From Escherichia coli (GTDB taxonomy: Bacteria; Pseudomonadota; Gammaproteobacteria; Enterobacterales; Enterobacteriaceae), in NCBI RefSeq assembly GCF_044324875.1, contig NZ_CP172185.1: a DNA stretch of 64,000 bases. One strand, given 5' to 3'. Positions 22,901 to 25,900 of the stretch are shown here, one piece after another. How positions within the stretch are numbered: the stretch's first letter is position 1; every line of letters starts with the position of its first letter. A program made the position numbers.

Positions 22901-25900
22901 TTGTACAGTAAAGCGCATTTGTTAACGAATCATTAAATGCCGAGTGGGAAAATATCATGGCCTTGTTCCTGCCAACTGGTAAGTTGCTGCTGTTGGGCGG
23001 AGGTTCGATTTTCACCGCACCACACCAGCAATGTACGGCCTTCGAACAGTTCAGGGCGTAGTTGATTGAGCGAGTGGGCGAGGACATCAATGCGCCATCC
23101 TTGTTGACTGGCAATCCAGCCCTCCAGCCATAGACGGGTGGTATCGTGAATATTCCAGCCAACCACCAGCGCATCTTTACCCTGTTTTTTACGTGCCGAA
23201 GCCAGGCAAATGGCGATGTAGTTGATCAGTACGCCGTCAAGGATCGCCAGCAGCGCCTGGAGGGTCGGTTGTTGGCACTGAAGTCGTCGGCGCAGAGGAA
23301 TAAACAGATGCGTGGTGAGTGTCTGGGCAGGGTAATCCTGACCGCGCTCTTTGATCCACGTTCGCAGGCTATGCAGATTGCCGCTTTGCAGGTAAGTCAG
23401 TAATGTTTCTTGCTGATCGCGCCAGCCGTTCTGCACATCAACATTTTCATTACTGAGCAGCATTTTAACTTTGCTGACCTGCACGCCGTTGTCGATCCAG
23501 CGTTTGATCTCGCGGATCCGGTCAATATCGGCATCGTTGAACAGCCGATGGCCGCCGTCTGTCCGTTGCGGTTTCAGCAATCCGTAACGCCTCTGCCACG
23601 CGCGTAACGTGACAGGGATTAAGGGTAAACTAACTGATTTTACAAGTTTTTATTTTACCCCACTTTCTTATGGGGCATACATGGGACACTTTCAGATAGT
23701 CTTTTGTTAAGGAGTTCTATCTGTTCGTGATTGTTGTCTTTCATCCATGCTCCGTAAACATTGAATACCATTTGTGCGTTTGTGTGGCCCATCTGGCTTG
23801 CGATAAAACTAGGATTAGCTCCAGCGGCAAGTGACCAGCATGCATAAGTATGCCTGGATTGGTACGATTTTCTGTGTCTCAGACCTGCGCGTTTTAAGAT
23901 ACTTGTCCATGACTCCCTGATGGAGTCAACCTTATAGTGCGGTCCGGAAAACTGCCGCTGTTTTATTACCTGAGGACTAAAAACAAAAGTGCATTTATGC
24001 ACAGTACTTCTCCCATATTCCCTCTGCTTTACCTCTACAGAATGTTGCTTTCCAAGCATGGTCATTTCCGCCTGACTTTTAAGAGCATCAATAGCTGGTT
24101 GAACCAGATGAATTGTCCTTCCGGTGCCAGCATCGGTTTTTGGTGGAGTGAATTCGCCAAGTTTTGTATAATTCCTACGGATGGTTATAGTCCTTGCTTT
24201 AAGGTCTATATCTTCCCATGCCAGCGATACCAACTCCCCGTGACGAATACCCGTGTATACAGCGAGAATCCACAGGTTTTTTGTTTGTTGATGACGGCAA
24301 GCCTCAATAAAACGAATAAATTCGTCACGGGTGAGAGGATCTGGTTTTACCTTGGACTTTTTTAAGGGAGCCAGACCGTTAAATGGGTTTCCTGAGGTAT
24401 AACCATTATCTGTTGCAAATTGAAACATTCCAGCTATGGTTGTCATATAGTAGTTTACCGTGACCACTGAGCGCCCTTTTATGGAAGAAGTCTTTCCATT
24501 AGAAAGCTTTTGGTAACCGGTCAACAAATCTCTCCTTACGAAAAGTAAATCCTCTTTTGTTATGGATGAAACCAGTTTTTTTTCACCTAACATTGGTAAC
24601 ATGTTTTTAATTACTGACTGGTAACGGTTAAGTGCATTCGCACAAATCTCAATTTTCTTAAGGTCCAACCATTTTTCCGAAAGTGCCTTAACGGTTATCT
24701 CTCTTTTTCCCAGACCAAAGTGTTTCAGGTTAGGGGAATTAGGGAACTGCGCGGCGTAGTCGAAACTCCCCATTCTGATTGCAAAACAAACGGAAGTGCG
24801 AAGTTCACCTGCGATCTTCCGGTTTTTGGCGGTGTCAGGAACACCGAGGTTTTCTCTGACACGTTTGCCATTATAGTGAAACCATATACGGAGTGATCCT
24901 CCATGGTTTTCAACGCCTGTCGGGTATGATACGTTACTCATTAAACCTCCCAGACGTCCAGGAGCATTAACAGGTTAACCGGAACTTGCATTTTTGGCAC
25001 CTGGTTGTTTCTGGTTTTCGATCCATCGCATAATTTCTTCGATGTTGTACAGGCATTCACTGTAGTGCCCCGGATCACCTTCTACAGCGTAATGGCGGTA
25101 TTCTTTTCCCTGCATCCATGACTTTCTTCTTGCCCGCTCAATGGTGCCAGGCTTTAGCCCTGTTGATGCAATGAGGACTCTCTCCGTACACCATTTGCTG
25201 GGGGTTATCTGATAGATGATTGTCTGCATGCCAACCTCATAAAATTTTCATCCACGGCAGTGGCACCACACATCAAACATTCGCTTCACAACTTCACGAC
25301 AGTAGAAGCCGTCAACATCTCGCGTCAGGTCATAGCGATTGCCATAACGCTGGCGCACCCATAGTTCAAATGCTTTATTCATTCTTTACTTCCTTTTCAT
25401 GGCCCGTAATTTTTTCAGATGAGCTTCCTGCTCTGTTTCTGCCAGAATTTGTCGGTATTCCTGGTGATCGAGCCGTTCAAACAGTTCATTAAAATCGTTT
25501 ATTTTTACCGACTGTGTTCTCCCATCCATTCTTCTGTACAACACAGTGTTGTTTATGCAGCGAATAATTTTTACCGGGTAGCCAGCACTATCGGTGTATA
25601 TCTGACCACGTTGAATCAGAGCGAACATTCCTTTATCCCCAGCGGAAAAGCGAATACAGAATAAATGCCACCGCTATTGCAACTCCTACTGCGGTGAATG
25701 CTTCAGGCCAATTCATCATTTCACCTCCACGCCGATCCCGGCAATAACACAATCCCGTTTGATAGCTTCTTTCACCCAGCGTTTATAGGTTTCCGGATGG
25801 AATTTTGCGTTTTTTCCGGTACCGCTCCAGAATGCCTTTGATGTGATATCGGGCAGGGTGATGGTCAGGCCTTTCTTCTTGCTGCCTTCAGAACTTTTGC

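Follow-up and report, generated by a model that had tools for sequence, protein, structure and literature searches.

A small open reading frame in the leftward early operon of temperate enterobacterial phages and its predicted single-helix membrane peptide

In a prophage carried by Escherichia coli contig NZ_CP172185.1, a gene for a 209-residue protein is followed by a gene of the DUF4222 family, and the DNA between them raises the question of whether it holds a gene of its own and what the product would do. The NCBI Prokaryotic Genome Annotation Pipeline (PGAP) and RefSeq leave an 87-nt gap at this point, and most submitters leave it unannotated. In the 64,000-nt stretch analysed here (hereafter the window), the initial annotation had placed in this gap a 28-codon open reading frame (ORF) with the Shine-Dalgarno (SD) sequence GGAGGTGA, an ATGATGA overlap with the upstream gene and a 4-nt spacing to the next gene, and all of these features are present on the minus strand. 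Our analysis favors, with a probability of roughly 55%, a genuine translated phage gene for a single-pass inner-membrane peptide that acts as a modulator of a membrane protein. The parts of this reading differ in strength: comparison of related sequences makes it very likely that the small ORF is a real coding gene, translation is probably coupled to the upstream gene, and the choice of a modulator rather than a toxin is tentative.

The case for a coding gene comes from comparison across a family of related loci. To assemble a set of 181 copies, we searched with a degenerate DNA pattern based on two conserved motifs and added loci anchored on DUF4222. The family peptide is 27 residues long and follows the pattern M-x-W-P-(E/D)-A…G…(Y/F)…(C/F)-R-W-G. 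These copies represent 58 distinct DNA versions and 35 peptide versions with zero indels. The sense frame of the small ORF is open in all 58 DNA versions, whereas stops interrupt the two remaining sense frames in 58 and 57 versions. Parsimony places 42, 44 and 126 changes at codon positions 1, 2 and 3, respectively (p about 8e-15), pairwise ratios of nonsynonymous to synonymous substitution (dN/dS) are mostly 0.1-0.5 for divergent pairs, and the pooled ratio of the corresponding polymorphisms (pN/pS) is 0.41 across codons 7-24, the region free of search-pattern constraint. The start forms an ATGA in 177/181 copies, and an SD lies at a spacing of 6-10 nt in 122 of 124 non-redundant contexts. 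In addition, a translated search (tblastn) recovered the peptide from 99 phage records. Its sequence is unchanged (100% identity) in phi467, BP-4795, VT1-Sakai, YYZ-2008, JLK-2012 and Stx1a phages, and in BP-4795, VT1-Sakai and YYZ-2008 the surrounding 429 nt are just 79-86% identical despite the identical peptide. Diverged copies with 48-70% identity occur in 933W, ArgO145, Stx2a_WGPS2, PhiR12 and others, and replacements in the peptide fall among hydrophobic residues. At the RNA level, no structure signal was found at the small ORF (fold z-score +1.07, SD unsequestered in the centroid structure), and Rfam places nothing on it. The proposal of a real, translationally coupled gene in a leftward early operon is thus upheld by the conserved ATG, SD, stop, length and third-position bias.

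The same conclusion can be approached from the frequency of similar ORFs in the window, where 281 ATG-initiated ORFs of 20-40 codons occur and a strong SD lies 4-16 nt upstream of 10. Two of these 10 abut long same-strand ORFs on both sides, namely the small ORF and an ORF at 26449..26354. The 10 also include YohO, a known membrane protein of 35 residues (22766-22873, minus strand) that adjoins mlrA and abuts no long ORFs, and which serves as a partial internal positive control for the short-ORF and SD filter. Judged by its comparative record, the small ORF is not a chance frame. The second hydrophobic ORF (26354-26449, minus strand) encodes 31 residues, MKSFLLSMLFGLLLASVVFGALIEYKFLMNY, with GGGAGG upstream. 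Its start has an ATGA overlap with the stop of a 74-residue gene (26446-26670), and it ends 8 nt before the ATG of the 209-residue gene. It is annotated in phi467 and not by PGAP, and tblastn matches it in phi467 only, which points to a narrow distribution.

What kind of product would this gene make? In every variant, a 19-residue window spanning residues 6-24 has a mean Kyte-Doolittle hydropathy of 2.0-2.75, and AlphaFold2 run on the family alignment returns a single helix over residues 3-26 with a core predicted local distance difference test score (pLDDT) above 90. This transmembrane prediction (Kyte-Doolittle above 2.0 at residues 6-24) and the modeled helix agree with the single-helix hydrophobic peptide of the initial annotation, and on these models it is highly probable that the peptide forms one transmembrane helix. 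Trp is found at both helix ends, with one acidic residue at the N-terminal end (WPE/D) and one Arg at the C-terminal end, so that the composition is rich in Ala, Gly and Val with a single charged residue per end. Under the positive-inside rule, this charge pattern suggests an N-out/C-in orientation. On a helical wheel, four conserved small residues (P4, G11, A15 and S22) fall at 20-60 degrees. A face of small residues is typical of helix-helix packing, and its presence here suggests packing against another transmembrane helix. A modulator is preferred to a toxin because of this small-residue face, the lack of type I toxin architecture and the composition of the peptide. A lipoprotein or signal-peptide reading was considered and rejected, given that Ile or Leu precedes the Cys, the window variant has Phe in place of Cys, and there is no basic N-region.

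The arrangement of the small ORF within the window bears on how the peptide would be made, and the features involved are the following.

25719..25633, minus strand: small ORF, 28 codons plus TAA (25635-25633), first ATG at 25719-25717, product MMNWPEAFTAVGVAIAVAFILYSLFRWG
25716..25633, minus strand: 27-codon, family-consistent form of the small ORF, from the second ATG (25716-25714), with a TGATG overlap with the upstream stop
25728-25721, minus strand: SD GGAGGTGA, which also codes for the last residues, E-V-K, of the upstream gene
26345..25716, minus strand: 209-residue gene, PHROG 492, function unknown; its TGA (25718-25716) overlaps the start of the small ORF
25640-25636, minus strand: GGGGA, set in the small ORF's Trp-Gly codons and 7 nt 5' of the DUF4222 ATG, for which it is the likely SD
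25628..25386, minus strand: DUF4222 gene, 80 residues, PHROG 285, ATG at 25628
25382..25248, minus strand: 44-residue gene, PHROG 3871, next in the coupled chain after DUF4222
25229..24975, minus strand: excisionase gene (xis), at the distal end of the leftward unit
24941..23655, minus strand: tyrosine integrase gene (int), followed by mlrA, the attachment-site neighbour

On the minus strand the junction reads GGC GTG GAG GTG AAA TGA TGA ATT GGC CT. Within its ATGATGA, the first ATG forms an ATGA overlap and the second a TGATG overlap with the stop of the 209-residue gene, which has a second in-frame TGA directly after the first. The other family members are all 27 residues long, and the window type has 28 with an extra Met. 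In the family, the ATG lies 7 nt past GGAGG (…GGAGGTGAATCAATGA…), a position equivalent to the second ATG of the window (25716), and in a sister variant GTG replaces the first ATG. Because the family spacing to GGAGG matches and the sister variant has GTG, the second ATG is favored as the start. We think that the main product is likely the 27-residue form beginning MNWPEAF…, with the 28-residue form also possible. At the other end, AGGA (25632-25629) makes up the 4-nt spacer between the stop of the small ORF and the DUF4222 ATG, and in type-2 relatives the DUF4222 SD is likewise placed in the end of the small ORF (…TGGGGATAAccacATG).

For the wider context we used the PGAP annotation of the E. 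coli NZ_CP100500 chromosome, which is 100% identical over the small-ORF stretch. The order there is mlrA, int, xis, the 44-residue gene, DUF4222, the gap, and then a run of same-strand genes up to a LexA-family repressor. The leftward unit thus occupies one strand from the LexA-family (cI-like) repressor to xis and int, and a cro-like gene diverges from the repressor. A consensus scan found no minus-strand promoter-like site from the edge of the scanned region (~28.8 kb) to the small ORF, and no plus-strand site at 24.8-28.8 kb, a scan that a weak promoter could escape. Since the same-strand run extends from the repressor without internal promoter-like sites, early-left operon is a fair description of the unit that contains the small ORF.

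Taken together, these features suggest a mechanism in several steps. The small ORF would be transcribed within the long leftward early operon, so that the peptide would appear once the phage is induced or infects a cell, and a repressed lysogen would make none. Ribosomes ending the upstream gene would reinitiate at the overlapping start (ATGA or TGATG) with the help of the strong SD; the likely SD of the following gene lies within the last codons of the small ORF. The peptide would then insert in the inner membrane as one helix (residues ~3-26) and bind another transmembrane helix, thereby modulating a host or phage membrane protein or self-associating, and it would not act as a free pore-forming toxin.

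Several other observations concern the surrounding genes. In NZ_CP100500, PGAP does not call the 209-residue ORF; all that it marks there is a pseudogene fragment, labelled "missing N-terminus", that covers the final 53 codons. The ORF is annotated in full in phi467, and its PHROG 492 match spans residues 1-158. The 209-residue gene may be chimeric, with a C-terminus swapped in together with the small-ORF module. Two further genes of the leftward unit are unusual for early-left cargo: one for an SPFH (HflK/C-like) membrane protein (window 27799-28626, minus strand) and a ParE-family toxin-like gene (about 29.2-29.5 kb, minus strand; position assigned by correspondence with L233). Downstream of the Q-antiterminator region, at 39412-39565 on the plus strand, ARAGORN calls two tRNA genes (Met/CAT and Lys/TTT). 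NZ_CP100500, which otherwise matches, instead has three tRNAs (Ile, Arg and Thr) whose offset is different, and its holin is not preceded by an stx gene. The window prophage differs from NZ_CP100500 in this region, as the tRNA sets and their offset differ.

The small ORF is found next to different genes in different phages. Among the 124 non-redundant contexts, it overlaps the upstream stop as ATGA in 92 and as TGATG in 21 (113/124 together), and the genes that it overlaps belong to at least four unrelated classes.

Upstream class: DUF551-type, ending …WMPLPEPPQEVNQ
Upstream class: "ACLAME-31"-type, ending …NGLISVEDILR
Upstream class: Ea22-like and EaA
Upstream class: 209-residue type, as in the window
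Downstream gene: DUF4222, exactly 4 nt away, in 60/124 contexts
Downstream gene: Hok toxin, about 154 nt away, in 31/124 contexts
Downstream gene: a convergent toxin-antitoxin pair, in ArgO145
Downstream gene: an "ea22" gene, in TH18

Many BLAST alignments begin exactly at 25728 (query position 673), so that the first base of the SD marks a homology breakpoint. Phages of the phiP27 type carry DUF4222 without the small ORF, behind its own SD, and the small ORF is found without DUF4222 in other phages. Because the flanking genes vary between phages and the breakpoint falls at the SD, the small ORF with its SD is, as read from these alignments, a mosaic module of its own that is always plugged onto the end of some gene.

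A number of observations weigh against a translated membrane modulator. The antisense frame that shares wobble positions with the small ORF is open in 56/58 variants with a pN/pS of 0.37, and dN/dS was rejected as proof of the reading frame, given that this frame scores alike (0.37 vs 0.41). Since substitution statistics alone cannot pick the strand, the frame was chosen by its start, SD, stop and composition. In the window, the antisense frame has no start codon giving at least 20 residues and no plus-strand ORF of at least 20 residues spans the small ORF; its translation is a hydrophilic string with variable ends. The search pattern itself accounts in part for the invariance of W3, P4, A6, R25 and W26 among the 181 copies; these motifs recur in the tblastn matches, which were obtained free of the pattern, and in the later profile search. 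Two ribosome profiling studies of enterohaemorrhagic E. coli do not list the peptide in their supplements; the cultures were uninduced, a state in which the operon would have been silent. Damaged copies are found in the Shigella phage POCJ13, with a nonsense change of TGG to TAG at codon 3 (L092, 1201-1209), and in L214 (~1603-1686), where a 1-nt deletion in the start region causes a frameshift; the latter is a 1.8-kb contig binned as Segatella copri that is probably misbinned enterobacterial phage DNA. Since copies have decayed in POCJ13 and L214 and the small ORF is absent from phiP27-type phages, the peptide is dispensable. In addition, there is no conserved neighbour gene pointing to a partner, and the modulator step is drawn from helix composition only. 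As a general point of method, dN/dS alone can mislead the strand assignment of short ORFs.

Among the alternatives, the one that survives best is a membrane-damaging toxin that depolarizes or permeabilizes the inner membrane or blocks division during lytic growth, in the manner of TisB, DinQ, Hok, a holin-like factor or a Kil-like host-shutoff factor. In favor of this reading, the peptide is like type I toxins in its size and single hydrophobic helix, repression of the operon in lysogens would allow a toxic product to be tolerated, and the accessory region is rich in toxin modules, including hok/sok ~154 nt downstream in 31/124 contexts, the ArgO145 pair and the ParE-like gene. The defining features of type I systems are an antisense promoter, an own transcription unit and start sequestration. 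None of these was found here: the scans revealed no antisense promoter or RNA and no private promoter, and the SD is strong and unsequestered, with no mRNA structure occluding the start. This leaves the type-I-toxin-like label of the initial annotation without its defining architecture, and its Kil-like label fared no better, as the peptide has no sequence relation to Hok, Kil or any other Pfam family at E≤10. The helix, with one charge per end and a small-residue face, is also not the amphipathic, Lys-rich type, and genomes with up to 7 copies exist. We therefore consider a toxin unlikely and continue to favor a modulator.

A second alternative is that the peptide is a membrane tether or small subunit, with the overlap giving one-to-one synthesis and the peptide bringing the preceding "ea-type" product to the membrane. 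The nearly universal overlap with the upstream stop fits this idea, as do seven upstream "ea-type" proteins known as in-frame fusions to the peptide, which yield tail-anchored products (P0037, P0039, P0042, P0054, P0058, P0061 and P0068). However, the upstream proteins come from unrelated families (DUF551, ACLAME-31 type, Ea22-like, EaA and the 209-residue type), and each fusion occurs in just 1-4 contigs, which fits sporadic frameshifts or assembly errors, whereas the free 27-residue and 40-residue forms are on record from 79 to >1,000 contigs. A programmed frameshift joining the upstream gene to the peptide was rejected, given the conservation of ATG and SD, the rarity of fusions and the lack of a slippery heptamer. 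A tether is thus improbable. Separately, the 121-residue "DUF551" proteins that cluster with the peptide were considered as fusions and rejected; they are ordinary DUF551 proteins, and the clustering is an artefact.

Still less probable is a relay ORF whose sole role is to hand ribosomes over from the upstream to the downstream gene, with the peptide as a by-product. The small ORF does overlap the upstream stop and bear the DUF4222 SD in its last codons with a start 4 nt later, and the IncY plasmid described below shows the same layout with a different downstream gene 3 nt away. Yet the peptide itself is conserved, with dN/dS below 1, hydrophobic replacements and a fixed length, and the ORF is kept without a close downstream gene in the 933W, ArgO145 and Hok contexts (~154 nt). 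Moreover, phiP27-type phages express DUF4222 from its own SD without the small ORF. The possibility raised with the initial annotation, that the ribosome-binding site serves only the downstream gene, fails on similar grounds, as DUF4222 has its own SD (GGGGA) and DUF4222 and the small ORF each occur without the other.

It is very improbable that the small ORF is a chance frame conserved as an antisense ORF or as an RNA or DNA element: it is unannotated by PGAP, RefSeq and most submitters, is known from sequence alone, and faces an open wobble-sharing antisense frame of similar pN/pS, but that frame lacks a start giving at least 20 residues and encodes a hydrophilic, variable-ended product, no RNA structure signal, Rfam match or plus-strand promoter was found, and the ATG, SD, stop and 27-codon length kept over 58 DNA variants are unexpected of non-coding DNA.

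How far has the peptide spread, and has it been described? Among complete E. coli genomes, 1545/5426 (28%) match a 101-nt query. A single genome can have as many as 7 matching places, 126 places are on plasmids, and carriers include the Shiga toxin (Stx) phages 933W, VT1-Sakai and BP-4795. In PLSDB, the peptide is found on 180 plasmids (E. coli 154, Salmonella 25, Klebsiella 1), mostly non-mobilizable and of 90-105 kb. One plasmid that we examined is a phage-plasmid of the IncY (P1-type) group; its peptide, MSWPEAFTTVGIVMAAALGLYSICRWW, has an ATGA overlap with a DUF551 gene and is followed by another gene 3 nt later. A profile search of 1.84 billion representatives returned 61 matches, including the distant relatives MLLLLADPMNWPEAFRSVGIAFAIAFAVWALVRYL and MLIFAAADTNWPEAFAIVGVSFAGALIFYVMARYM. 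These distant relatives sit in tight same-strand arrays of small genes, and for one of them (P0095) the phage and plasmid collections gave no match to its carrier element. A one-genome-per-species scan with a strict motif pattern gave 19 matches, of which 18 are chance occurrences in GC-rich taxa with internal stops and the 19th is the L214 contig. Because this species-wide scan gave chance matches besides the misbinned contig, the strict form of the family appears confined to mobile elements of E. coli and close relatives, with the pattern being too strict to define host range, since endings such as RWW and RWR escape it. Two large-phage records also contain family members beside EaA/ea22-type genes, L087 (vB_EcoM_TH18, 133.9 kb) and L094 (a 120.9-kb IMG/VR contig), both classed as, or resembling, virulent myoviruses (Vequintavirinae). 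Either a lambdoid "ea" block was transferred to these phages or the assemblies are chimeric.

With regard to annotation, ON470583.1 is the one of about ten inspected phage records that annotates the peptide. GenBank holds sporadic "hypothetical" or "bacteriophage protein" entries, such as ASL58468.1 and AOM45384.1, and a 40-residue extended call (WP_290124247.1). Searches of Pfam, NCBIfam, PHROG, PADLOC, Rfam and the PDB sequences, with a single sequence and with a profile, gave no significant match for the peptide, and PADLOC-DB gave none for the peptide or its three nearest neighbours at E≤1. No description of the peptide was found in open-access full text or several supplements, including that of an Enterobacteriaceae microproteome survey. 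Phage genes for small transmembrane peptides are a known kind, and the family itself appears to be undescribed.

It is tempting to go one step further and suppose that temperate enterobacterial phages, those of the Stx type among them, use the peptide for host takeover or exclusion, with the early helix binding a specific inner-membrane machine, though we regard this extension as doubtful. The machine could be part of the divisome or elongasome, FtsH/HflKC, a transporter, or the route by which the DNA of a superinfecting phage enters. If true, the peptide could alter the outcome of induction and the release of Shiga toxin, or block competing phages. Far less credible is a variant of this extension in which the conserved C-terminal (C/F)RWG would be released as a signalling peptide. 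As regulators, small transmembrane peptides form a class that is recognised but under-sampled, and a conserved, mobile phage peptide expressed on induction would be a cheap and well-defined target for studying early-lytic membrane effects. The locus also provides a clean three-gene chain of translational coupling, in which the end of each gene bears the ribosome-binding site of the next. In practical terms, the 87-nt "gap" should be annotated as a coding sequence. The finding is unsurprising in principle; the gene is widespread, occurs in medically relevant Stx phages and is easily tested.

The closest comparison for the favored reading is with KdpF, AcrZ, MgrB, MgtS, PmrR and CydX, small single-pass membrane modulators that have been reviewed as a class (PMC12648545). 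Like the peptide, members of the KdpF/AcrZ/MgrB class have fewer than 50 residues, one transmembrane helix and few charges, and they are often missed by annotation. They act through helix-helix contact with a larger membrane protein, and the peptide likewise has a small-residue face. In contrast to this class, the peptide is phage-borne, has no conserved neighbouring partner gene and shows no sequence relation. The best NCBIfam match is to kdpF (TIGR02115), with E=0.024 and 14.7 bits vs a cut-off of 26.85, over 12 residues and in one variant only. Membership in the KdpF family is not indicated, with a score below the cut-off and a phage operon rather than a kdp operon as its context.

The type I toxins TisB (29 residues), DinQ (27 residues), ShoB (26 residues) and Hok (50 residues) are similar to the peptide in length, single hydrophobic helix and carriage on mobile elements, and Hok genes often adjoin the peptide gene. 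The peptide falls within the small hydrophobic membrane peptides of about 20-60 residues that type I systems encode. Two further hallmarks were not found: the plus-strand scan (24800-28800) and Rfam revealed no antisense or divergent RNA antitoxin with a promoter, and the gene lies in a polycistronic operon with an exposed SD (z +1.07) rather than in its own transcription unit with an mRNA that occludes the ribosome-binding site. The natural 40-residue form has no Pfam match to Hok/Gef (PF01848), even at E≤10. Unlike type I toxins, the peptide would be made by coupled operon translation from a strong, exposed SD, with no antisense RNA or promoter of its own found. Type I toxins are rich in Leu, Ile and Lys and amphipathic, and the peptide is rich in Ala, Gly and Val.

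Lambda Kil (47 residues), Rac KilR, Qin DicB and lambda CIII share with the peptide that they are small products of the pL or early-left operon of lambdoid phages made on induction. These proteins target FtsZ/ZipA, MinC or FtsH and are soluble or amphipathic. Unlike this group, the peptide is a predicted integral-membrane helix; its gene belongs to the "ea" accessory block, at the extreme of the operon nearest int, and no Pfam, NCBIfam or PHROG match indicates homology to Kil, KilR or DicB. SidA and DidA of Caulobacter and Blr and YmgF of E. coli are single-helix inner-membrane divisome binders of ~30 residues, which are chromosomal and stress-induced and show no apparent homology to the peptide. 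Given this likeness, SidA, DidA, Blr and YmgF provide a plausible functional analogue of the phage peptide, and we offer them as a lead only.

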